NCBI GenBank assembly: GCA_963743635.1
Contig: CAVUQO010000003.1
Span: 448,001 to 512,000, forward strand
Direction: 5' to 3'
DNA length: 64,000 bases
Origin: Candidatus Babeliales bacterium
Lineage (GTDB): Bacteria; Babelota; Babeliae; Babelales; Vermiphilaceae
Every line of letters starts with the position of its first letter. The stretch's first letter is position 1. A model generated the notes under the pieces. The model was not told the origin of the DNA, did no database searches, and saw only the letters and a list, made by a program, of their open reading frames with translations. Below are positions 8,845 through 61,099 of the stretch, in pieces. Both the position numbers and the translations under genes were made by a program.

Positions 8845-10293
8845 GTGATACGAAAAGAAGATTTAATTAAAATTAACGAATATACCTACGAAATTTCAGA
8901 TGCATTTCGCTCTGATATGCGCGTTCCTGCGCGTATTTTTACGCATGAAACCATGCTGCAATCAATTACGCAGGATCGATCATTGAGCAGTTAGTCAACG
9001 TGGCGACGTTTCCAGGTATTCAAAAATATGCATTTGCAATGCCCGATATTCATCAAGGATATGGATTTCCGATTGGTGGCGTTGCCGCAATGTCAATTGC
9101 TGATGGGGGCGTGATATCGCCCGGCGGCATTGGATACGATATTAATTGTGGCGTGCGTATGTTGACCGTTGATATTTCGTATGACGAGATCAAGCCATAT
9201 TTAGAAGAATTAGCGAGAGCACTATTTGATGAGTTCCTTCGGGTGTTGGGCGTGGCGGATTAATGAATTTAGATACGCATGAACTTGATAAAGTGCTGCA
9301 GTATGGTGCGAATCGTATGGTAGAGCAGGGATATGGCAATGACCGAAGATTTGCTTTTTTGTGAAGAGCATGGACGTATGCATGACGCGAATCCAGAGCT
9401 GATAACGAAAGAAGCAAAAAAACGCGGTAAAGATCAGTTAGGGACACTTAGGATCAGGCAATCATTTTCTTGAAGTGCAACGTATTACTGAGATTTATGA
9501 TGAACGATAGCAAAGGTGTATGGCATAAAAAAAGATATGATAACGGTGATGATTCATTGCGGTTCGCGCGGATTGGGTCATCAAACATGCACCGATTATG
9601 TGCGGCTGCATGATGAAGGCATTGCCGCAATGGAATATTCAGTTGCCTGATCGTGAATTAGTTTGTGCGCCATTTCATGCAGATATTGCGCAAGAATATT
9701 ATGTGCTATGGCAGCAGCGGCAAATTTTGCATGGGCAAATCGCCATACCATTGGCCATTGGCGTCGTAAAACATTTAAGAAATTATTGGGCGAAAGGTAA
9801 CGATGTAAAAACACTTTATGATGTTTCTCATAATATTGGCAAACGTGAAAAGCATATGATTTATGGCAAAGAAGTTGACGTGATCATGCATCGCAAGGGT
9901 GCAACGCGCGCATTCGGCCCCGGCACGATTGAAACGCCAGAGCCATATCGTTCTATTGGACAACCCGTGCTTATTCCTGGTACAATGGGCACCGCTTCAT
10001 TCATATTATCGGGAACATCTGAGAGTATGAACGTTGCATTTGGCAGCTCTTGCCACGGCGCAGGGCGTAGTATGTCCCGCGCTGCAGCACAAAAAAAGGT
10101 GAGTGGTAATCAGTTACGTAAAGAGCTTGAATCGCGTGGTATTATTATTCGCTGTGATTCAAATAAAGGTCTCGCAGAAGAGGCTCCATTTGCGTATAAA
10201 GATGTACAAAATGTAGTTGACGTCGTACAGGGCGCCGGGCTTGCGCATAAAGTTGCACGCATGGAGCCGATGGCGGTGGTTAAAGGTGGCTAA
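8845..10293 (+). CDS. rtcB: RNA ligase RtcB (several frameshifts)
   Basis: [44 protein letters not shown] and EEAPFAYK motifs. Confidence 0.93.
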
Positions 10294-10386: not shown

Positions 10387-10779
10387 ATGAACTATAAAAC
10401 AATGTTGCTGTGCGCGGTAATTGGTGCATCGATGCAGAATGCATGGGGTATGGATGAACTACAAAAAAGAGCGGAAGAAGTACGAAAAAAAATAATTGAT
10501 TTGCGGACGAAGATCGTGAATGAGGAAATCACACAAAGAACGAGCGGGATGCTTAAGTTGGAAGGCTTGGTCAGACAGAACAGCACAATTATTTGTAATG
10601 AACCAGAATTCGCAACGATAAGGCCTAAGCTGGCCGCATTTCACAAGACTCTCAAAGAGTCTGATAGTGCGGATATAAATTATGAAATGGCTTCAACGGC
10701 AACAGCATTGGCAAACGAGTTTGAAGCTGCGTTGAAAGAATATCAAGAGAACAGGAACGTAACGAATAATAATAACTAA
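10387..10779 (+). CDS. Secreted protein, leader family A (copy 1)
   Basis: MNYKTMLLCAVIGASMQNAWG-MD; RBS aaagga. Confidence 0.85.
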   Translation: MNYKTMLLCAVIGASMQNAWGMDELQKRAEEVRKKIIDLRTKIVNEEITQRTSGMLKLEGLVRQNSTIICNEPEFATIRPKLAAFHKTLKESDSADINYEMASTATALANEFEAALKEYQENRNVTNNNN

Positions 10780-10789
10780 TGGGAGTACC

Positions 10790-11290
10790 ATGAACTATAA
10801 AACAATAATGATATGTGCAGTAATTGGTGCATTGATGCAGAATGCATGGGGGATGCAAGGTGGAAATCCACAATACATGCCGAGCGCGCCATTAATGAGT
10901 CCTTCGAATTCTATTCGCCCCAGCAATAATCCGCCGCCATATTCGAATAATAACGCAACGCTGCCAGCTGTAAATAACAATAATAATTCAGTATCAAGAC
11001 AAGAGGTCAGTGAAATTGCTCAATTACTTGCTGCGATTCAAACACTGAATCTGAATGTCGAAAATATGAACGAGCAGCTGAATGCTAGAATGGCCAAGAT
11101 GGAGAAAAAAATAGGCACAGTAGAAGAAAAAGTTGAAGGGATGACGAAATATTCGCAGTACATTAGTCTCTCCGATCTTAAAAAAAGCATTGAGGAGGTT
11201 AAGCACAAAGTTGATCATACTGAAAAAGTCGTTGATGGCGTGAAGTCGAAAGTAGACAATATTTGGTACAAAGTAGACAGAATCAAATAG
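10790..11290 (+). CDS. Secreted coiled-coil protein, leader family A (copy 2), with PSAP and PPPY motifs
   Basis: MNYKTIMICAVIGALMQNAWG-MQ; heptad-rich C-terminus. Confidence 0.85.
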   Translation: MNYKTIMICAVIGALMQNAWGMQGGNPQYMPSAPLMSPSNSIRPSNNPPPYSNNNATLPAVNNNNNSVSRQEVSEIAQLLAAIQTLNLNVENMNEQLNARMAKMEKKIGTVEEKVEGMTKYSQYISLSDLKKSIEEVKHKVDHTEKVVDGVKSKVDNIWYKVDRIK

Positions 11291-11370
11291 ACGTCGTCTT
11301 ACTTCTCAATATAAAATAAGAACATAACCATGCTGTCGTACGTGTGGCGGGTTTTTTGAAGGGAACAATC

Positions 11371-11766
11371 ATGAACTATAAAACAATAATGATATGTGCA
11401 GTAATTGGTACATCGATGCAATCTGCGTGGGCGATGGATGCGAATCAGAATGCGAACGATAACAACAAACCAGTCGAGATCAGTGAAATTGCTCAATTAG
11501 CAGCTGCGATGGCGGCAGCCTTTAAAGGTCTAGAGACTACTATTGTTGAAGATCTTAGGGAGATTCGGAAAGATCTTCGGGAAGTTCGGCAAGATCTAAA
11601 GACTACTATTGTTGAAGATGTTCGGGAGGTTCGGAAAGATCTTCGGGAAATTCGGCAAGATCTAAATACTATTAATGGGGGTAATCTGCAACTGCAGGAA
11701 GATCTAAAGGCTATTAATGCGCAACAGCAGAAGTTAATCGATGCGTTTGGAAAAAAGATAGAATAA
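11371..11766 (+). CDS. Secreted coiled-coil protein, leader family A (copy 3)
   Basis: MNYKTIMICAVIGTSMQSAWA-MD; 22-aa tandem repeat. Confidence 0.85.
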   Translation: MNYKTIMICAVIGTSMQSAWAMDANQNANDNNKPVEISEIAQLAAAMAAAFKGLETTIVEDLREIRKDLREVRQDLKTTIVEDVREVRKDLREIRQDLNTINGGNLQLQEDLKAINAQQQKLIDAFGKKIE

Positions 11767-11859
11767 AATTCGAAGAGAGAGTCATGGCGCTTCCGTTTAC
11801 GTTTAACAACTACCTCGGACTTCGTCGATACGTGCTTGCAGCACTACTCCCATGCTTCG

Positions 11860-11935
11860 CCATCCTTCGACAGGCTCAGGACGAGCGGATCCGTTCATGG
11901 TAGTCCTGAGCGAAAAGCGAAGGGTCGAACCACGC
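11860..11935. repeat. REP-like doublet
   Basis: ccttcgacaggctcaggacgagcgga followed by the inverted unit ccgttcatggt...gtcgaacca. Confidence 0.65.
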
Positions 11936-11970
11936 AGGGCAGGCAGGACTAAAGACCGAAAGGAAATATC

Positions 11971-12429
11971 GTGAACTATAAAACAATGATATTGTGGGCT
12001 TTGCTCGCAGGAACGATGCAAAATGCGTGGGGGATGCAAGGTGGAAACCCACAATACATGCCGAGCGCGCCATTAATGAGTCCTTCGAATTCTATTCGCC
12101 CCAGGAATAATCCGCTGCCATATTCGGATAATAATGCAATGCAGCCAGCTGTAAATAACAATAATAATGCAGTATCAGAACAAGTAATCAGTGAAATTGC
12201 CCGATTAACTGCTGCATTAGAAGCATTGAATACGAGAGTTGCGAATATGCATAGTCAGCTGAATGGTAGAATGACTTGTATGGAGCAACAAATTAAAGAT
12301 GTAACAAAATCGGTAGAAGAGTTGAAAGGCAGCCTTGATCGTATTGGAGAAGCAGTTGCTTACGTTAAGCACAACGTTGAGCGCGGAGAAGACAACGGCG
12401 CCAACATACGTTATCCAAGTCCCGAGTGA
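11971..12429 (+). CDS. Secreted coiled-coil protein, leader family A (copy 4)
   Basis: GTG start; leader family A; N-terminal mature region nearly identical to copy 2. Confidence 0.85.
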   Translation: MNYKTMILWALLAGTMQNAWGMQGGNPQYMPSAPLMSPSNSIRPRNNPLPYSDNNAMQPAVNNNNNAVSEQVISEIARLTAALEALNTRVANMHSQLNGRMTCMEQQIKDVTKSVEELKGSLDRIGEAVAYVKHNVERGEDNGANIRYPSPE

Positions 12430-12519
12430 GAAGTAGAAGGTTGCCCTTATTAGACATTAAGAAAATAATTGTGCCGGTCGTTCACAAGCGGCCGGTTTCT
12501 CGATAACAAAGGACGTAAG

Positions 12520-13074
12520 ATGAACTATAAAACAATAATGATGTGTGCAGTACTCGCGGGATCAATGCAAAGTGCATGGGGAATGGCAAATCTGCCCATG
12601 GAATCACAAAAAGGAGTCCAAGTTTTAGCCGGTGCATTAGACGCATGCGATAGGGAGTTTGGCGACTGGAGTAAAATTCCAGAATTTCAAGAACCATTGC
12701 GGAAATATGATATTTTTAAGCAAGGCGATTTTTCTCAGATGACGTCTGATCCGCATATTTATGCAAAAGATCTTGCACAGCAATTAGATGCTATGCGTGC
12801 CGCATATCGCTCAAAAGTAGATCGAGCATTGGTCGGTGCTAAACTTTTCACAGTCGTGAGGTTGAAATACAAGAGCGCAGGCATCGGATTTGAACAATCT
12901 CGAGAGTTTAGGGATGTCGCTTCCAACATTGCAAAGGTTGATGAGATACGATCTAGACTCATGAGCTTAGATCCGGTGGAGGTCATTGATCTTGGCATTG
13001 CAGCTGGTTATCTTGCGAAAGAAATGGACGCCGCGCTTAAGGTATATGAGATAAATAATAATAACAAAAAATAG
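12520..13074 (+). CDS. Secreted protein, leader family A (copy 5)
   Basis: MNYKTIMMCAVLAGSMQSAWG-MA. Confidence 0.85.
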   Translation: MNYKTIMMCAVLAGSMQSAWGMANLPMESQKGVQVLAGALDACDREFGDWSKIPEFQEPLRKYDIFKQGDFSQMTSDPHIYAKDLAQQLDAMRAAYRSKVDRALVGAKLFTVVRLKYKSAGIGFEQSREFRDVASNIAKVDEIRSRLMSLDPVEVIDLGIAAGYLAKEMDAALKVYEINNNNKK

Positions 13075-13105
13075 AGCGTTATAATGATTTAAAAAGGAGA
13101 ATGTT

Positions 13106-13528
13106 ATGACCTATAAAACAATCTTATTGTCCGTAGTAATTGGTGTATCAATGCAGAATGCGCATGCGATGGATGCGAATCAGCCGAATGGTAACGAGAC
13201 TTTAATCGCGAGACCAGCTGCAGATGAAAAGAGCATTACAGAAAAACACCATCTCGATTATCAAAAGGAACGGCTTGTATTTTGGAGCAACTCATTTTTG
13301 AGGGATGATCCGAAATTAAAAGAGATGTTTCAGGAAATTAATGGTGATGCCATTAAGACTTATATCGACAACATGCTGCAGGCAAAAAAGGATGCGGCTG
13401 ACAGTAGGGATAAGATATTAGAAAAAGAGCACCTTGAAAAAATCTATCTAGAGGAGCAGGGATTTAAGGATTACAGTACTGAACTTCAATCATCAACCTC
13501 TGCCTATCCAATCTTCAATTTGCGATAG
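13106..13528 (+). CDS. Secreted protein, leader family A (copy 6)
   Basis: MTYKTILLSVVIGVSMQNAHA-MD; RBS aaggag. Confidence 0.85.
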   Translation: MTYKTILLSVVIGVSMQNAHAMDANQPNGNETLIARPAADEKSITEKHHLDYQKERLVFWSNSFLRDDPKLKEMFQEINGDAIKTYIDNMLQAKKDAADSRDKILEKEHLEKIYLEEQGFKDYSTELQSSTSAYPIFNLR

Positions 13529-14222
13529 GCTCCTCTATATACTGGATCTTATTCTCATTAAGCCACTTTTTCCAACAAGGGGTGATTGGTTGTTTTGAGT
13601 GTAACACGAATGATTTTCCGTGACCGCTACGTTGAGAAAACTTTTGATATTTTTTGAGTTGTATCGCGATTTTGATTGCGTCTTCCTCTTTATAGAGTGC
13701 CCAATTAATATTCTTACATTCAATGAATTGTGATTCCGTCGCCAGATCAATAGAGCGCGTCGTTCTGCCTCGCTTAGAACTAAATTCATAGCCAAAATGA
13801 GTGATGGTTTCACCGTGCTGGTCGAGCTCAATCGCTTTTTCCAATTCGTACATGTGTCCTTGTATAAATGATTCGTTATCTGCGTTAGAAATCAATTCAT
13901 ATATTTTATGTGAAAAGCCAGGCGTTTTGCTAAAGCGCTCAATTGCCCCATAGAGCGTGTGAGAATGTTTGCAATACAATAAGGTTGGATTGTCATAATG
14001 ATATGCAGTTACAATGGTTGCTAATGTTTTAGCATGGGTTGTGGGATTTTCTTTGAATTCTTTGAGCAATGCATAGCGAGCGCTATTTGCTGCAATTTCA
14101 TGATTTGCAGTTGTGATGGCCAGCGCGAGTTCGATGAGTGTTTTGTGTCCCTGTAGCAGAGACGAGAAAGAACTGAGTAGAAAAATACACAGCGTTGTAT
14201 TACGTATACATATATGTTTCAT
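13515..14222 (-). CDS. Secreted protein with a putative PD-(D/E)xK (restriction endonuclease-fold) C-terminal domain
   Basis: Signal-like N-terminus; GHMYE...SIDL...FIECKN...IQLKKY. Confidence 0.55.
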   Translation of the reverse strand: MKHICIRNTTLCIFLLSSFSSLLQGHKTLIELALAITTANHEIAANSARYALLKEFKENPTTHAKTLATIVTAYHYDNPTLLYCKHSHTLYGAIERFSKTPGFSHKIYELISNADNESFIQGHMYELEKAIELDQHGETITHFGYEFSSKRGRTTRSIDLATESQFIECKNINWALYKEEDAIKIAIQLKKYQKFSQRSGHGKSFVLHSKQPITPCWKKWLNENKIQYIEEPIAN

Positions 14223-14320
14223 TAATGCCCCCTTGCACTATTCCATTACTACACATGCAATGTCACGAGTACTATAAGAGAGGCATTAGGAAAATGCAAT
14301 AATATTGCGTTAGGTTTGAG

Positions 14321-20838: not shown

Positions 20839-21246
20839 TTATCTTTGTTGAATAGCAGCTTTTAGTAGCAGTACATACGCTTGGAATGCAGCATGTGCTT
20901 TTTCTCGGGTAGCAGCATTTTTAGTGTGTGCAAACACGAGACTTTCTTGCACTATTGCTTGTTCAAGGTAATCATTTTCTTGGAATGACCTTGTTTCGGC
21001 TGACCATTTAGTAGTAGAAGGTATAAGAGGTTTTAGTAGTTTTGCATACTCTTGGAATGTTTCATGTGCTTTTTCTCTGGTAGCAGTATTTCTATTTTGT
21101 GTAAACACGAGACTTTCTTGCGCTTCTAAGTTTTCAAGTAGTGAGAGTGCTCTTTCCCTTTTCGCCATATCCTCTTTGTAACTTGCAAACACCGATGATC
21201 CGCAGCATACCAATGCCACGAGGGCGACTAATTTTAGATTTTTCAT
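20839..21246 (-). CDS. Secreted protein with internal duplication, related to leader family B
   Basis: VALVCCGSSVFA leader; two QESLVF...ATREKAH..FQ.Y..LLK repeats. Confidence 0.8.
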   Translation of the reverse strand: MKNLKLVALVALVCCGSSVFASYKEDMAKRERALSLLENLEAQESLVFTQNRNTATREKAHETFQEYAKLLKPLIPSTTKWSAETRSFQENDYLEQAIVQESLVFAHTKNAATREKAHAAFQAYVLLLKAAIQQR

Positions 21247-24674: not shown

Positions 24675-24975
24675 ATGGTTTGGCCTTATCCTTAAGTATT
24701 ACCAGCCAAAAGGCTGTTAAAAATGATACCAAAACCAGTATAAGATGAATTGATGGGGATCGCAATAAGAAGAAAAAGAGTGTGAGCAAAGTTATGATGC
24801 GCATGAAAGAATACGAAAATGAGGAGTAGGGGTTGCGCTTAATGAGTGGCTGTCCGGCAGGATTTGATTCAGAAGAAAGGACTCTTTTCTTGCAATGAAA
24901 CAAGAAAAAGAGTCCATATATAATTCCAAGACCAAAACCGGCAGCCAACGAAAGCGCGACGGTATAGAGTTCCAT
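24649..24975 (-). CDS. AtpR/AtpI-like small membrane protein
   Basis: Small hydrophobic protein (AGFGLGIIYG) immediately upstream of atpB. Confidence 0.6.
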   Translation of the reverse strand: MELYTVALSLAAGFGLGIIYGLFFLFHCKKRVLSSESNPAGQPLIKRNPYSSFSYSFMRIITLLTLFFFLLRSPSIHLILVLVSFLTAFWLVILKDKAKPYDRSARSE

Positions 24976-24984
24976 TACAGTATG

Positions 24985-26403
24985 TTAGAACTTCTTAAGG
25001 CCTTTGTGGCGCCAGAATTCAGTAACAATGCCGGTTGAACCAGTAACAACGACTAAGCCGTTACGTTCATCGACTGTTTTCTGAGCAGCTTCAAATGCTT
25101 CTTTGAAGTTTGCGCACGCCTTAGCTTTTATTTTCATGCTCTTAATTTCATTCGTTACTTTTTCAACATCCCATGATGGGGCATCAACGTGACCTGGAAT
25201 TGATGCAACGGGGCATACAAATACTTGGCCAGAAGTCTTTTTGAAGAAGTAGCGTAGAAGCTTAAGGAATTCAGCAACATTTAATTCAGGATTATTACAT
25301 CCGACAATGAGCGTGAGTCCTTTCAGCGGTCGTTGATAATGTAAGAGACGAATACCAAGCAACAGATTCTTAAATGCGTCGAGATTGTCGGCGCTATCAA
25401 TTAAGAGGCTTGGCTTTTCTTTTTCTAGTAATTGAAAGCGTCCTGCAATAGTGCATTCGCTATCTTTCCAGAATTGATCAATAGTTTTCTTAGGATTCAG
25501 TTCTGATTGACGTTTTGCTTCTAGAGTAGGGCGACCACGTTGACCTTTTTTCTTGGTTAACAAGGTACCACTTACTACGATTGCATCTTTATCAGTAAAT
25601 GAATTGACATAAATAGAGGCGATGCGTTCAGCAAGTGCTGCGCAACGTCCATGAAGTTGTTCAAAAGGATATGCAAGCGGTGAAAGCTTACGAATTGGCA
25701 TTGCCCAGATACCTTTTTTAGCTTCGACCATTTCAAGCATTGTTTGTAAGTTTAATTTGCTTTGGTCAGCAGAAACAAGGTGAGTTCCAGGTTTGACAAT
25801 AGAAACCATTTGTTGGATAAAATCTTTTATTTCTTCAGCATTCGCATCGACATTGTCTGGCGTAACGCGTGTGATAGCGGCAACTTTTGGTGAACAAATA
25901 TGGGTTGCCATGTGTAGGCCGGTGTTATCAACTTCTAGAATTGCAACATCAAAATTTTGTTCTTTAAAATAAAGGAGCGCCATCATAACCAATACATCAT
26001 GAGATGTTGGTTTGAGAGCAAGTGAATCGGCAGTGTTTAATACTTCATTACCAAGTTCGGTGAATGATTTATTGGAGATGATCTCGCCATTGCCAGTAAT
26101 AAGTTCATTGTAGGTCAGTATGTGTGGTTCTTGGAATGTACCAACGGTAAGACCTTCTTCTCTCAGCAATTTTGCTGCGAAATGTATTGTTAACGATTTG
26201 CCGTTAGTACCTGTTACCAAAATGGTATTAAGCTTATCAGCGACGTTATTGAACGCAGCATTAAGTTTTTTAATGCACGTAAGCTGCTTATCACCCTTTT
26301 TTACGTTCCAATGGCTATCCAGGAACTCAACGATTTCGTTGTAATTACGCTGCTTGCCAAGGGTAACCGGGCTTTTGTCAGACTGTTTAGTGATGTCTTT
26401 CAT
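24985..26403 (-). CDS. Divergent FolC / Mur-ligase-fold protein
   Basis: VTGTNGKS P-loop, EPHI, AILEV, GRFQ, VVTGS; several FolC motifs are degenerate. Confidence 0.75.
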   Translation of the reverse strand: MKDITKQSDKSPVTLGKQRNYNEIVEFLDSHWNVKKGDKQLTCIKKLNAAFNNVADKLNTILVTGTNGKSLTIHFAAKLLREEGLTVGTFQEPHILTYNELITGNGEIISNKSFTELGNEVLNTADSLALKPTSHDVLVMMALLYFKEQNFDVAILEVDNTGLHMATHICSPKVAAITRVTPDNVDANAEEIKDFIQQMVSIVKPGTHLVSADQSKLNLQTMLEMVEAKKGIWAMPIRKLSPLAYPFEQLHGRCAALAERIASIYVNSFTDKDAIVVSGTLLTKKKGQRGRPTLEAKRQSELNPKKTIDQFWKDSECTIAGRFQLLEKEKPSLLIDSADNLDAFKNLLLGIRLLHYQRPLKGLTLIVGCNNPELNVAEFLKLLRYFFKKTSGQVFVCPVASIPGHVDAPSWDVEKVTNEIKSMKIKAKACANFKEAFEAAQKTVDERNGLVVVTGSTGIVTEFWRHKGLKKF

Positions 26404-46673: not shown

Positions 46674-47048
46674 ATGAAGATGTTAAGAAATATGATGATT
46701 GTGGCACTGGTGTGCTCAGGTGCATCGGCAATGGCGATGAGTGAAGAGGATAAGAGAGTGCAAGAACTTACTCATCAGATCGAGCAGGATGAACAAACTC
46801 TAGCCTCTTTGGGATATGGTGGTGAAGGGAGTTGGTCAAAGAACATTATCAAAAAGGCAATTGAAGAGCGTACGCCCGAGTTAAAGAAGCAGCTGAAACA
46901 AGCAATACAACAAGCAATCGCAGTAAAAGAAACTAGGATACAATCTTTGGGATATGGTGGTGAAGAGAGTTGGTCAAAGAACATCATTAAAGAACAAATG
47001 CAAAAGGATATAGCTGGCTTACAAAAGCAGCTTGCTGAACTTGAATAA
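46674..47048 (+). CDS. Secreted protein, leader family B (copy 3), with internal duplication
   Basis: MKMLRNMMIVALVCSGASAMA-MS; SLGYGGE.SWSKNIIK occurs twice. Confidence 0.85.
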   Translation: MKMLRNMMIVALVCSGASAMAMSEEDKRVQELTHQIEQDEQTLASLGYGGEGSWSKNIIKKAIEERTPELKKQLKQAIQQAIAVKETRIQSLGYGGEESWSKNIIKEQMQKDIAGLQKQLAELE

Positions 47049-52938: not shown

Positions 52939-53679
52939 ATGAAAATATTGAAAAAAATAACGCTGATAATGCTTGCATGTGCTCTCTGCAGTCAACCGAT
53001 ATTGGCGATGAGTGAAAAAATGCTGGAAAAATATAAAAAACAAGAACAGGAAAAAAGGGAAGCGGAAGCAAGGCGGGAAGCTGCAAAAAAAAGAGAAGAA
53101 GAGATAAGTAAAGAATGCGCAATCTGCTTGGAGGGGATGAAAGAATCTGATGATCTTGCAACTTTATCGTGCAAGCATACGTTTCATAAAGAATGCATTA
53201 AGGATTGGTTAAAGCGGCAAACAACGTGTCCGGTATGCAGAAACCCTATCTCTCAACAAGATCAAGACGTTATTAATGCAGTAAAAAAGATTGAAAAAGG
53301 TAAACAGCCTGCTCGAGCGGGTGAATCATCACGTATGGGTGAGCAACGAGGTCAACGGCAAGCGGCAGTTGAGGATATCGAAGCAAGGGATCAGTATGGT
53401 AGGACTGCATTGCAAAGAGCAGCGATAGCGGGTGATTTTGATTTAGTAAAGACGCTGATCGCGCGTGGTGCGAATGTTAATACGAGAGATAATCACCAAA
53501 ATACACCATTACATGATGCTGCATGGTACGGTCACAACTTTGTCATAATAGCACTTGCAAACGCCGGAGCCGACGTTAATGCCCGCAATAGACATGGTCT
53601 TACACCGCTCGGTAAGGCTCATGCTAATAATAAGACAAGAGAAGAGCGCATTTTGCGGGATATATATCACGCGCGATGA
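52939..53679 (+). CDS. Secreted RING-H2 plus ankyrin repeat protein, leader family C
   Basis: CAIC...CKHTFHKECI..W.....CPVCR; NTPLHDAA ankyrin repeats. Confidence 0.92.
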   Translation: MKILKKITLIMLACALCSQPILAMSEKMLEKYKKQEQEKREAEARREAAKKREEEISKECAICLEGMKESDDLATLSCKHTFHKECIKDWLKRQTTCPVCRNPISQQDQDVINAVKKIEKGKQPARAGESSRMGEQRGQRQAAVEDIEARDQYGRTALQRAAIAGDFDLVKTLIARGANVNTRDNHQNTPLHDAAWYGHNFVIIALANAGADVNARNRHGLTPLGKAHANNKTREERILRDIYHAR

Positions 53680-54087: not shown

Positions 54088-56463
54088 ATGAAGATGTTCA
54101 AAAAAATAACGCTGATAATGTTTGCACTTGCTCTCTCTACTCAGCCGATGTTGGCGATGAGTGAGAAGGCGCTAGCAAAATGGAAAAAAGCAGAGCAAGA
54201 AAAGAGAGAAGTGGCGGCCGCAGCAGCGGCGAGAACAACTCCAATCGCAAGTAGCTCATCAGTCATCCCGGCAGCACCTCCTGCGCCCGCTCTAAAACCA
54301 TCGTCTCCTGCTGTAAAACAAAAAGTAAAAGTGGCAGTGCAGCCAAAACCAACGCAGTATACGGGTTATCGTAAACTCGCGATTTTATTGACTTCAGATG
54401 AAGAAAAATTGTCCAATGAAGCACTCAAAACGTTATCGGATCATGAGGATATTGATGATCCGTCGTTTCAGTCGGCATTCACCAATTTATTGGCAGATAT
54501 TCTTTGCCAAAAAGCAATTCCGGTCTTGGTTTGTGAACCCTGCATTTTGGAAAATATTTTCCTCTTACAATATGCAACGGCAAAATTCAGTGAAAAAAAT
54601 GACTATGATAGTGCAGATCTAAAACAGACATTGCGTGATGACGCTGAGATGAGAAAAGATGCACAGAATATGAAGAAGTCAAACCCTGGTCCGATCTCAG
54701 AAAAATCTCCCTTCTTTATTCGTTATAAAGAGCTGTATTCTCCAAGAGACAAAGATGAATCAGAAGATGGGGCAGAGTACATTTCGAGCATACCAATAGA
54801 TTTTCCACTTGATGTTATACCGAATGGGTGGGCTCTTTTTGAATATCATGATACGCATCCCAGTGAGAAAGCATACCTTTTAATTCCATCACCTCAAAAA
54901 TCCGATCCAATGCAATTGCTTATTGCGCATGGATTTAATCCTGCAGTATTTAGATATAAACCTTTTGCCGTTTTTATGAAAGAGTTGAAGGAAAAATCAG
55001 ATTATTCTGACTATGGCAAAAAAGGCAGCAAGAAAGAAGTAATGAGCTCTCAAGAAGTGAAAGCGGCATTGCATGCTTTCTCGCTGAGCGCGCTTACTAT
55101 TATTAATCAATCACTTACCGATGATGCCACTAAACCTTGGACATTATTAATTGGAGGCCATGGACAGATAAAAACTTCAGAGTTGAGTGATGCTAGTATC
55201 GCTGGGATGTCAGCGGATGTGCTGACTAAGGGATTATTGCCGCTGCTGGTAGATAAAAATAGTCGATTTTGTTATTTCTGGACGTGTGATATCGGGGGGG
55301 GTAATAGAGATCTTATTCGCGAAGTATTTGCCAACGTACATATAGCCAATGAGTTGTTGCCAGAGCTTAAAAGCATGCTGAAAAAAAAGACGCCTCAGTA
55401 TCCAAATAATCTCATTACGGTTGTTGGAGGCATCTCGGATATTACAGTATTGTCGATGACGCCAGTGCCTATACCAACCGATAGCATTGCATCTTTTAAT
55501 AAGGTATGGACGAGCATTGATAAGGATGATCCCATTGCCATGCATTTCTTACCATTAATTCCAAGCGTGCGCTATGATCTCTTTTTTAAGGGCCTTGAGC
55601 AGCATTTAAGGGCTGAGGATCAAAAAGGTAAATCTACCAAAGAATTAGTGACGCCATGGAAAGAGCTGCTTAAGTATGTAACGCCATACAATTTTGCAAA
55701 AGGAGAGTATTTCTATAGCAATATTCCGCAAATTCGTTTTCCAACGCACGATGCAGCATTTAATGCTCTTGAGGTGGATGGACGGATTCAGGTGTTGACG
55801 TACGTTGACGTAAAAGCGCGCGAGTTTGAGGCAAAGTTGAGAGGTCAAGCTGCTGCGAAACCAATCATCGTTGATAATAAAGATATGCTCATTGTGTATC
55901 CATTAAGCGTTAATGCGCCGGTTGAAATGATGCAAAAGGATCCTGCAATCGTTCCCGCTCGAGCAGAAACTATGGGCATGTTTTTCAAAAAGATCACGTG
56001 TCCGCCGAGCAAAAATTTGCAAAATACCATCCACACTCTCTTTACCTATGAAGCAATGGGCGGCAGAAAAATCGCACGTTCGTTTTTAGTGGAAGAACTT
56101 GGTCTCAGCAATAGGGTGTATAAAGACGTCTTGGTAACGAGCAAATCGGTAGAGCCAGAGGGTGTATGGAACGAAGAAACCAAGGAATATGACTATCCGG
56201 CCTCTGCATGGGTGTGGAATGAGCAAACGCAAGAGGAGGGGTCTGAATCCAGTGAACCGGAATTCGCCGGAGCATCAGTTGATATCTCAGTATATTATCG
56301 CACTCCTGATAACAAACTCATGAAATATCATTATGAGCACAAAGAACACGAAAAAGAAATAAAAGTACCAGAAGACGATATAACTAATTCGTATGAAGCG
56401 GCTGCTATTGAAGCAATGATTAATGGCGTGAAAGAAAGTATCTCAAAGGAAGAAGCGCTATAG
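54088..56463 (+). CDS. Large secreted protein, leader family C, with putative clan CD cysteine protease domain
   Basis: Family C leader; WTLLIGGHG...IAGMSADVL...FCYFWTC. Confidence 0.8.
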   Translation: MKMFKKITLIMFALALSTQPMLAMSEKALAKWKKAEQEKREVAAAAAARTTPIASSSSVIPAAPPAPALKPSSPAVKQKVKVAVQPKPTQYTGYRKLAILLTSDEEKLSNEALKTLSDHEDIDDPSFQSAFTNLLADILCQKAIPVLVCEPCILENIFLLQYATAKFSEKNDYDSADLKQTLRDDAEMRKDAQNMKKSNPGPISEKSPFFIRYKELYSPRDKDESEDGAEYISSIPIDFPLDVIPNGWALFEYHDTHPSEKAYLLIPSPQKSDPMQLLIAHGFNPAVFRYKPFAVFMKELKEKSDYSDYGKKGSKKEVMSSQEVKAALHAFSLSALTIINQSLTDDATKPWTLLIGGHGQIKTSELSDASIAGMSADVLTKGLLPLLVDKNSRFCYFWTCDIGGGNRDLIREVFANVHIANELLPELKSMLKKKTPQYPNNLITVVGGISDITVLSMTPVPIPTDSIASFNKVWTSIDKDDPIAMHFLPLIPSVRYDLFFKGLEQHLRAEDQKGKSTKELVTPWKELLKYVTPYNFAKGEYFYSNIPQIRFPTHDAAFNALEVDGRIQVLTYVDVKAREFEAKLRGQAAAKPIIVDNKDMLIVYPLSVNAPVEMMQKDPAIVPARAETMGMFFKKITCPPSKNLQNTIHTLFTYEAMGGRKIARSFLVEELGLSNRVYKDVLVTSKSVEPEGVWNEETKEYDYPASAWVWNEQTQEEGSESSEPEFAGASVDISVYYRTPDNKLMKYHYEHKEHEKEIKVPEDDITNSYEAAAIEAMINGVKESISKEEAL

Positions 56464-60124: not shown

Positions 60125-61099
60125 ATGAATATGTTGAAAAAAATAACGTTGATAATGTTTGCATGTGCGCTGTACAGTCAATCGATGTTGGCGATGAGTG
60201 AGAAAGCGCTGGAAAAATGGAAAAAAGTAGAGCAAGCAAAGAGAGAAGCGGCAGCCACAGCTCGTAAGCAAACCGTATTATCATTTGATATTGATGACGT
60301 TATCAGTGGAAAAGCAAAAATAGGAATTAGTGATTATCTTACGTTGGTGCTGCGCATGATGCTTTGGAATCCGATGGTGGTCACCGCACTCTTTCCTGCT
60401 AACCAAGCGGCAATGAGTCAGTATGTTACTGAAATACAAAAAACGGTGAATGGTGGTTCAAACGTCGTGCACGAAATCATAGGATATTTAAAAAATAACG
60501 GCTATGGCGATCTTTCTTGTTACGAGCCTGAGATTATTGAACGTTCGCAAAAGCCATATCCCGTAACGCGTATGATTGATGATATTAAAAAGCTCAAAGC
60601 AGCAGGTTACAGCGTTATAGGTGCGACCAATCAGGATTATATGCAGCATCAGGCATATCGGCGGTATATGAAAGACGTCCATGGTATCGATCTCAATACA
60701 CTCTTTGATGCTGTGTTGACGACGTGCGTGTATCATGCTGCGCAACCGGCTGGTGATGATTTATGCTACCGACTCAATGCAACAGACAATATCTATGTAG
60801 CGCGCAATCGTGAAGCTTATAAACCGCATTCCAGTTATTTTACCGTCGTTCAAGAATTGGCCAAAAAAGTTGAGCCAACAAGTACGCGCGTTATACATAC
60901 TGACGATAGAAAAGAGAATATTGACGCGGCGGAACAAGCGGGCATAGAAGGCATTCATTTTAATCTGCCAGGAGAAAGTGTCCGCAAAACAACTCCTGCT
61001 GATCTGGATAATAGTATCAATGCCTGGGAAGCTGAGCTAAAGGGTTTGGGCATTCAGGGGTTAGCCGTCCAACAAAATTCCCAAGCGGCATACGTTTAA
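60125..61099 (+). CDS. Secreted HAD-superfamily phosphatase, leader family C
   Basis: FDIDD (motif I), ATN, KP, TDDRKENIDAA..AGI.GIHF. Confidence 0.85.
   Translation: MNMLKKITLIMFACALYSQSMLAMSEKALEKWKKVEQAKREAAATARKQTVLSFDIDDVISGKAKIGISDYLTLVLRMMLWNPMVVTALFPANQAAMSQYVTEIQKTVNGGSNVVHEIIGYLKNNGYGDLSCYEPEIIERSQKPYPVTRMIDDIKKLKAAGYSVIGATNQDYMQHQAYRRYMKDVHGIDLNTLFDAVLTTCVYHAAQPAGDDLCYRLNATDNIYVARNREAYKPHSSYFTVVQELAKKVEPTSTRVIHTDDRKENIDAAEQAGIEGIHFNLPGESVRKTTPADLDNSINAWEAELKGLGIQGLAVQQNSQAAYV

Follow-up and report, generated by a model that had tools for sequence, protein, structure and literature searches.

The window examined here is a stretch of 64,000 nucleotides (nt) from the genome of a Candidatus Babeliales bacterium (assembly GCA_963743635.1, contig CAVUQO010000003.1, positions 448,001 to 512,000), and our subject is an array of six genes in it, A1–A6, which begin alike and then encode proteins of different kinds. 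Open reading frame (ORF) listing places all six on the + strand at 10387–13528. Each copy has a start codon, a Shine–Dalgarno (SD)-like AGGA/GGAG motif and a full leader of 22 codons (66 nt), confirming the conserved block on co-oriented genes that the initial annotation had described from the letters of the DNA. A1, A3 and A5 have an earlier possible start upstream, and there the family consensus sets the start at the ATG of MNYKT. The part behind the leader, here called the cargo, falls into three classes, which were scored with profiles built from relatives only and containing no protein of this genome. Below, G000 is the label for this genome (1.45 Mb), L013–L019 are metagenome contigs of relatives, and P with four digits denotes metagenome proteins. 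The six genes are as follows.

10387–10779, + strand: A1, leader (10387–10452) and class I helical cargo; 74.4 bits with the class I profile; closest homologue P0006
10790–11290, + strand: A2, leader (10790–10855), P/N/S-rich linker, SEIAQL motif and coiled coil; class II, 116.2 bits with the class II profile
11371–11766, + strand: A3, leader (11371–11436), MDANQ, SEIAQL and an internally repeated coiled coil; weak class II, 18.7 bits
11971–12429, + strand: A4, GTG start, leader (11971–12036) and class II cargo, paralogue of A2; 92.2 bits with the class II profile
12520–13074, + strand: A5, leader (12520–12585) and two tandem class I modules (~12610–12813 and ~12814–13065); 76.5 bits
13106–13528, + strand: A6, leader (13106–13171; MTYKT...AHAM), MDANQ and class III cargo with an FW...LxLxxEGF motif; 66.7 bits with a profile made without A6

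Among the six, the 66-nt leaders are 67–89% identical as DNA and 41–82% identical as protein, while the 30 nt upstream of them, compared without gaps, are only 27–53% identical, which equals background once the SD-like motif is set aside. The leader consensus is MNYKTIxxCAVIGxSMQNAWG|M, the bar marking the predicted cleavage site. When a profile of the leader was run on the genome and on 40 related genomes of other genera, the six leaders scored 55.3–68.2 bits and everything else 17.0 bits or less, the next-best match reaching 14.7 bits in the bacterium's own genome and 17.0 bits in the other 40. This gap shows that the block is real, specific and limited in its own genome to the six genes, and the absence of any score above 17 bits in the 40 genomes indicates that the leader family is confined to a narrow clade. 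The leader of A2 is closest to those of A3 and A1 (88–89%), not to that of A4 (73%).

The initial annotation had taken the leader for an export tag, a reading that the sequence features back. We applied a rule-based signal-peptide reading to an alignment of the 26 leaders for which DNA was at hand. A charged n-region is provided by K4 in 25 of the 26, positions 5–15 form an uncharged hydrophobic core of 11 residues drawn from I, L, M, V, C, A, G, S and T, and small residues occupy positions −3 (position 19: A in 23 leaders, S in two, T in one) and −1 (position 21: G in 20, A in five, S in one) in all 26. The genome encodes SecY, two secretins and two ORFs of the signal-peptidase-I family (Peptidase_S26). 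The leader is thus predicted to be a Sec-type signal, probably cleaved by signal peptidase I after AWG (AWG|M). The two signal-peptidase-I ORFs lie in tandem (G000 C3:523091–524866), and the first, a single frame of 350 aa (amino acids), aligns to the family model over two stretches. Genome-wide, (A/G)-M occurs at positions 15–30 in 129 of 417 crudely defined signal-peptide-like N-termini, against 57.7 expected from shuffles, and in most cases Q, D, E or N comes next; M22, which is invariant in the leader, thus conforms to a habit of the whole genome at the predicted cleavage site.

Other kinds of leader fit less well. A lipoprotein signal was rejected because C9, found in 21 of the 26 leaders, is preceded by I, L or M and is replaced by W in A4 and S in A6; a twin-arginine signal was rejected because none of the six leaders has an R at positions 1–8 or an RR motif. 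When the six 30-residue N-termini were searched against Pfam, neither PF12113 (SVM_signal) nor any other family matched at E ≤ 10. It is very improbable, in our judgement, that the block is not a Sec signal at all and instead serves either as a leader of the bacteriocin type or of ribosomally synthesized and post-translationally modified peptides (RiPPs), with a dedicated peptidase/transporter, or as an RNA or DNA regulatory element lying over the gene starts. Bacteriocin precursors do typically occur as tandem arrays with a conserved leader and a variable core, and the synonymous codon identity of the leaders, 0.68 as opposed to 0.40 expected from genome codon usage and highest in codons 3–7, points to some constraint at the nucleotide level. 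However, the excess in codons 3–7 matches the usual A/T-rich bias of start regions, and the pattern fits an extra constraint on the start of the mRNA. The leaders moreover end in WG, HA, HG or WA behind their uncharged hydrophobic core of about 11 residues and small −3/−1 residues, with no terminal Gly-Gly, so that a double-glycine bacteriocin leader was also rejected; the mature parts of 60–235 aa are far above the size of a RiPP core; and the variation lies at third codon positions and in conservative swaps of hydrophobic residues.

Behind the leaders, the initial annotation had seen a patchwork of cargo. Instead, the cargo resolves into three families between which no homology could be detected: cross-class profile scores are 3.8 bits or lower, and profile–profile comparison with hhalign found no relation between the cargo classes (probability ≤0.5%). 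Clustering of the mature parts gave two large groups. The motifs that had suggested a patchwork are all present. SEIA(Q/R)L is common to A2, A3 and A4 (in a block that is 88.6% identical over 35 nt for A2 with A3 and 86% identical over 29 nt for A3 with A4), and SEIAQL is the signature of class II; the tail LAxExxAALKxY..NNNN of A1 and A5 (25 aa at 44%) makes up the conserved terminal part of the class I module; and MDANQ is found in both A3 and A6. The likeness of A2 and A4, first put at about 55 further residues, is not so limited, since 123 aa align at 58.5% identity, as expected of plain paralogues. With an enlarged class II profile that includes members from its own genome A3 reaches 45.7 bits, and the two class I modules of A5 appear as separate domain matches of 52.8 and 75.2 bits.

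AlphaFold2 models A5 as all-helical (mean predicted local distance difference test score, pLDDT, 81.4) and A6 (mean pLDDT 71.0) as helical too, with a confident core, a helical bundle, at residues 38–117. A search of a protein atlas gave no usable match for the cargo of either. The class I cargo profile had no match in 150 other genomes of the order; the class II core had weak matches (21–30 bits) in six of the 150, which probably reflect coiled-coil likeness. Elsewhere in the bacterium's own genome, at G000 C3:769442–769828 on the − strand, we observed a class II-type cargo, with a P-rich linker, the motif ETARLTAAIEELN and a coiled coil, behind an unrelated signal peptide that begins MSTLKKYLAISALSLTIFSQ.

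The family is larger than the six genes. With the six aligned proteins as query, 20 metagenome proteins were returned in which this leader precedes bodies of varied kinds, and when a profile was run on 1.84 billion cluster representatives, at least 84 clusters (at 50% identity) matched at E ≤ 1e-3, 37 of them at E ≤ 1e-10, in which the family proteins are 80–257 aa long. All 65 newly returned proteins score with the leader profile (12.1–62.6 bits); in six of them the match begins only at model position 6 or later and the start of the leader is missing. Among relatives, modules are combined in several ways: a GGWLLNT module is fused to class I, class I carries an IIFEGGS tail, and class I occurs doubled; the IIFEGGS tail is also found alone or after other parts. 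Relatives hold further cargo types beyond classes I–III. Two of the metagenome proteins, P0022 and P0026, are in-frame fusions with internal leader ends (QNAWGM and ARGM, respectively).

Why the leader is conserved can be judged from how it varies. Across the 26 leaders, departures from the consensus make up a fraction of 0.15, 0.12 and 0.27 at codon positions 1, 2 and 3; third positions are about twice as variable as first and second ones, as expected where purifying selection acts on a translated peptide, and such selection mainly accounts for the conservation. Over 87 family members (3741 pairs), mean leader identity is 0.57 in the 3517 pairs without detectable cargo similarity and 0.57–0.67 in the 175 pairs whose cargo is 20–95% identical. 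This flatness across cargo relatedness suggests that roughly 12 of the 22 leader positions are fixed and that the others drift. Signal peptides normally diverge faster than the mature proteins behind them, and the initial annotation had called the array the reverse of expectation. That holds for paralogues only; where homologues are closest, in two pairs, it is the leader that has diverged more than the cargo (A1 and P0006, leader identity 0.68 and cargo 0.77; A6 and P0005, 0.55 and 0.74). The apparent reversal therefore stems from unrelated cargo behind one constrained leader and not from unusually slow evolution of the leader.

These comparisons bear on another account of the array, the plain tandem duplication of one secreted gene whose cargo has diverged past recognition under relaxed or diversifying selection, with the signal peptide alone constrained and no shuffling of leaders required. 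All cargo is small and helical, A2 and A4 as well as A1 and A5 are ordinary paralogues, leader identity forms a flat plateau whatever the relatedness of the cargo, and codon positions 9 and 17 of the leader are saturated, all as this account would have it. We nevertheless regard it as unlikely. Profile–profile comparison gives no signal between the classes, and modules combine in relatives (GGWLLNT with class I, class I with IIFEGGS, double class I). The fusion genes keep remnants of a leader inside them, the MDANQ extension of the leader stands on both a class II (A3) and a class III (A6) protein, and class II cargo occurs with another signal peptide elsewhere in the genome.

The array lies between the following conserved genes.

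8845–10293, + strand: rtcB, in several frames in this assembly; RtcB Pfam match at E = 2.4e-67 for 9598–10293; syntenic in L015
13515–15049, − strand: a 235-aa ORF with a signal-like N-terminus of its own, then a holB-like gene (DNA polymerase III delta'); syntenic with L014 and L016

Seven metagenome contigs have flanks with 70–90% DNA identity to the genome and carry leader genes at the same chromosomal position. Array content at this syntenic locus differs among relatives: there are 11 tandem leader genes in L014, between a TPR gene and the holB side, six in the genome studied here and probably three in L015 and L016, which overlap in one gene and were counted together. Contig L019 has, at another locus, an insert of 575 nt with a single leader gene (L019:5079–5654; 159 aa, weak class I), where the bacterium's own genome (window ~24959–24985) has a 26-nt gap between the same two blocks, so that leader–cargo units also occur outside the array. 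The TPR gene that adjoins the L013/L014 array (L013:6700–7045 and L014:1–567, both on the − strand) starts with MNYKTTIISALLAGT, like the first 15 residues of the leader. As a donor of the leader it was rejected, since only the L013/L014 copy starts with MNYKTT and its orthologue in the bacterium's own genome starts differently.

Several traces of recombination are visible at the level of DNA. Between A2 and A4, 17 of 63 positions differ in the leader and only 13 of 164 in the adjoining linker (Fisher p = 0.00035), and further downstream the differences rise again to 37 of 100 and then 57 of 121; this low value between two more divergent sides indicates a probable gene-conversion tract.

10856–11019, + strand: probable conversion tract common to A2 and A4 (A2 positions 67–230; A4 counterpart from 12037), placed by the difference counts

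The homology of L015 to the genome (89.5% in the flank) runs from rtcB into the first leader and ends at the last leader codon, after which L015 has class II and our genome class I cargo. Further traces are the in-frame fusions, the class II-type cargo behind an unrelated signal peptide and the leader-like start of the L013/L014 TPR gene. At identical residues, synonymous codon identity is 0.763 between leaders of the same array but different class, 0.698 between those of different arrays but the same class, and 0.631 where both differ, with effects of array (p = 0.0002) and of class (p = 0.028) in permutation tests. To some extent, leaders may thus be homogenized within an array, and the effect is modest. 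The initial annotation had gone further in two respects. Its picture of an array diversified by recombination stands in part, in the conversion tract, the homology break at the leader end, the fusion genes and the differing array sizes; recombination is real but secondary, and the claim is partly supported. That the leader acts as a homology arm, as it also proposed, is possible; that the leader is kept for this role is not supported, as peptide selection explains most of the conservation and the synonymous effect within arrays is modest.

Taken together, we consider it probable that the six genes are members of a family of exported proteins, restricted to one clade, in which a Sec-type leader of single origin stands before at least three unrelated families of helical cargo, in a hypervariable array that recombines. 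On this reading, a 22-residue leader that arose once and is functionally constrained as an export signal would have been placed on several unrelated small, mostly helical proteins (80–260 aa), its first codons also being held at the nucleotide level. The array would be a hypervariable position between conserved flanking genes. It would change by tandem duplication, by entire genes being gained or lost, the borders falling at the leader, by segmental conversion and by in-frame fusion, and it could grow, shrink and be reshuffled through ordinary homologous and illegitimate recombination. As the only sequence common to all members, the leader would be the natural place for gains and losses of gene size. 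The sequences show the anatomy of the genes, the cargo classes, the pattern of selection, the variation of the array and the traces of recombination; from them we infer that the proteins are exported and cleaved and that they have a role either at the surface of the cell or directed at its host. It is plausible that they are effectors; as thin context for this idea, host-dependent relatives are rich in signal peptides (PMC6561590), and a RING-ankyrin protein encoded in the window also carries a conserved signal-type N-terminus.

A number of results weigh against this reading or temper parts of it. The contrast in whole-leader DNA identity that concerted evolution would produce is not significant (0.760 versus 0.744, p = 0.095), the pairs in this and the synonymous-codon test are not independent, and organism-specific codon usage could lie behind part of the synonymous effect of array. 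The two-fold codon positions 9 and 17 are at codon-usage expectation, hence leaders are not generally homogenized. The three classes could be one family diverged beyond detection. No fold or family match points to a function: Pfam searches of the six full proteins gave coiled-coil matches below the cut-off or none (those of A2 are generic coiled-coil matches, all below it), and Foldseek against the PDB found nothing for A5 at E ≤ 1e-3. A wide VIA-align search gave as best matches, for A5, the N-terminal domain of Borrelia BB0323 (Z 9.3, 150 residues aligned, root-mean-square deviation 4.7) and, for A6, CARD and bromodomain-like bundles (Z 5.8); these Z values are within the chance range for helical bundles, and no fold is assigned to either protein. 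Lastly, the contigs of four public sequencing runs contain no leader-to-leader joints, contigs being assemblies that drop rare variants; they break at leaders, as they do at repeats.

The contigs also bear on the idea of programmed variation, in which the leader would be a recombination site or homology arm selected for the swapping of cargo, comparable with Mycoplasma vsa, Neisseria pilE/pilS and phage internal-protein loci. In its favour are the borders of gene gain and loss at the leader, an identical stretch of 39 nt held by the leaders of A2 and A3, the array-specific synonymous variants, and the presence of recA, which is intact in the genome. We hold this idea to be improbable, since all copies are co-oriented, each with a start codon, a ribosome-binding site and a full leader of its own, and since conservation follows the pattern expected of a translated peptide. 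Neither an invertible segment nor a silent 5'-truncated copy was seen in the sequence read, in which no repeat search and no systematic check of the neighbouring ORFs for a recombinase was made. Contigs of two independent studies are identical to the window wherever they cover 10894–14300, with no leader-to-leader joints.

Parallels to a clade-restricted family with one leader and several kinds of cargo exist in other bacteria. The closest is the Erp family (OspE/OspF/Elp) of Borrelia burgdorferi, described in the part of the source cited here as having a leader of single origin, cargo of several independent origins and frequent recombination (PMC10016077). The array shares the single-origin leader, the multiple origins of the cargo and the recombination, and it would share with Erp proteins their place as exported host-interface proteins of a host-dependent bacterium. 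It differs in that the Erp leader is a lipoprotein leader with a sorting sequence, whereas the one described here is of the signal-peptidase-I type and has no lipobox; in that Erp genes have a conserved promoter/operator (the upstream homology box), whereas here high-scoring segment pairs between genomes start 12–21 nt before the ATG; and in that Erp genes occupy allelic sites on cp32 prophage plasmids, whereas here there is one chromosomal tandem array, with no sequence relationship between the two.

The SVM signal of phytoplasmas (PF12113) is, in the sections cited, a conserved signal-peptide motif on unrelated effectors such as SAP11 and SAP54 (PMC8026896). There too, a conserved signal peptide is common to unrelated secreted proteins of an obligately host-associated bacterium, but the leader has no PF12113 match and the genes here lie in tandem, flanked by housekeeping genes, in a bacterium that is a diderm, as judged from the BamA gene in the window. 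In phytoplasmas an outer membrane is absent, and SVM genes are located in mobile-unit regions. In Mycoplasma pulmonis, one N-terminal segment of the vsa genes is moved onto silent genes by inversion, according to the part of the account cited (PMC4534519). The likeness is that an N-terminal coding segment is combined with alternative cargo through recombination. A shufflon of the vsa or pilS type was rejected for the array, as vsa combines a single expression site with silent 5'-truncated genes and undergoes site-specific inversions, and the array has six complete co-oriented genes. Among secreted peptides of animals, conotoxins have a pre-pro region that is conserved and a mature part that is hypervariable. 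Similarly, Mytilus CRP-I and frog skin peptides are reported, in the portion of the source cited, to have a signal region more conserved than the mature region across paralogues (PMC4558851). These animal families differ in being eukaryotic, with an exon structure and a common cysteine scaffold, whereas the cargo classes of the array are unrelated.

In the literature on signal peptides and effectors of Dependentiae/Babeliales that we searched, no title concerns a conserved-leader family. The array thus apparently represents a new family that follows a known evolutionary pattern and has not yet been described in the phylum, and it parallels, independently and in a different phylum, what the Erp and SVM families show. 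In one cultured member of the Dependentiae, 44% of coding sequences have signal peptides, most of them on proteins of unknown function, as stated in the part of the source cited (PMC6561590). Dependentiae are obligate associates of protists, and the leader offers a search key for exported, fast-changing proteins; it marks a hypervariable locus at which relatives differ by whole genes and could prove useful as a marker of candidate effectors. The locus is also a natural system for the reuse of a signal peptide on new cargo. Its practical value at present is that of a lead.

The leader of the array is one of at least three conserved leaders in the genome that stand on cargo which does not align. 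A second family, whose leader begins MKILKLMALVALV, has nine members genome-wide with identities of 0.61 in the leader and 0.11 in the mature part, and a third, MK..KKITL..., has five members (leader 0.52, mature part 0.08), one of which is the RING-ankyrin protein mentioned above. The remaining leader-sharing families in the genome are ordinary paralogues. Genes of the second and third families lie in the window at five positions.

20839–21246, − strand: gene of the second or third leader family
46674–47048, + strand: gene of the second or third leader family
52939–53679, + strand: gene of the second or third leader family
~54088–56463, + strand: gene of the second or third leader family
~60125–61099, + strand: gene of the second or third leader family

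Three leader families, the excess of (A/G)-M and the tandem signal-peptidase-I genes raise the idea that several conserved Sec-type leaders act as address labels in a lineage-specific code for sorting or processing. We find this doubtful. If true, classes of exported proteins would be sent further by this code, for instance from the cell into the host, and the leader would be a portable module recruiting new cargo.

The MetRS encoded in the window is nearest (52–62% identity) to those of metagenome-assembled genomes titled Candidatus Dependentiae, Babeliales or Babeliaceae, and the window also encodes BamA, a WD40-rich protein and the RING-plus-ankyrin protein. A scan for promoters and terminators did no better than chance (six promoter-like sites with 9.0 expected, four terminator-like ones with 2.6 expected). 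SecY is split over three frames (G000 C2:374519–375510) and the rtcB gene next to the array is fragmented; as SecY is essential, its split points to indel errors in the assembly, which probably contains them, rather than to a pseudogene. The six genes of the array are intact despite this fragmentation elsewhere in the assembly. The spacer between A3 and A4 holds a repeat.

11864–11950, no strand assigned: small G+C-rich repeat element; five further partial copies in the genome, 74–92% identical over 78–102 nt

Another multi-copy repeat is present in L014 at ~9987–10105.

Finally, near window position 10280, where the array has its upstream edge, we observed a sharp strain-level recombination boundary. 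In the 3' part of rtcB (9802–10293), contigs from runs X1–X3, which come from two studies, carry 25 differences from the window among the 323 positions of 9802–10124 and 22 within 10125–10279, the latter mostly at every third base. From 10280 onward through the array, wherever they cover it, the same contigs are identical to the window.

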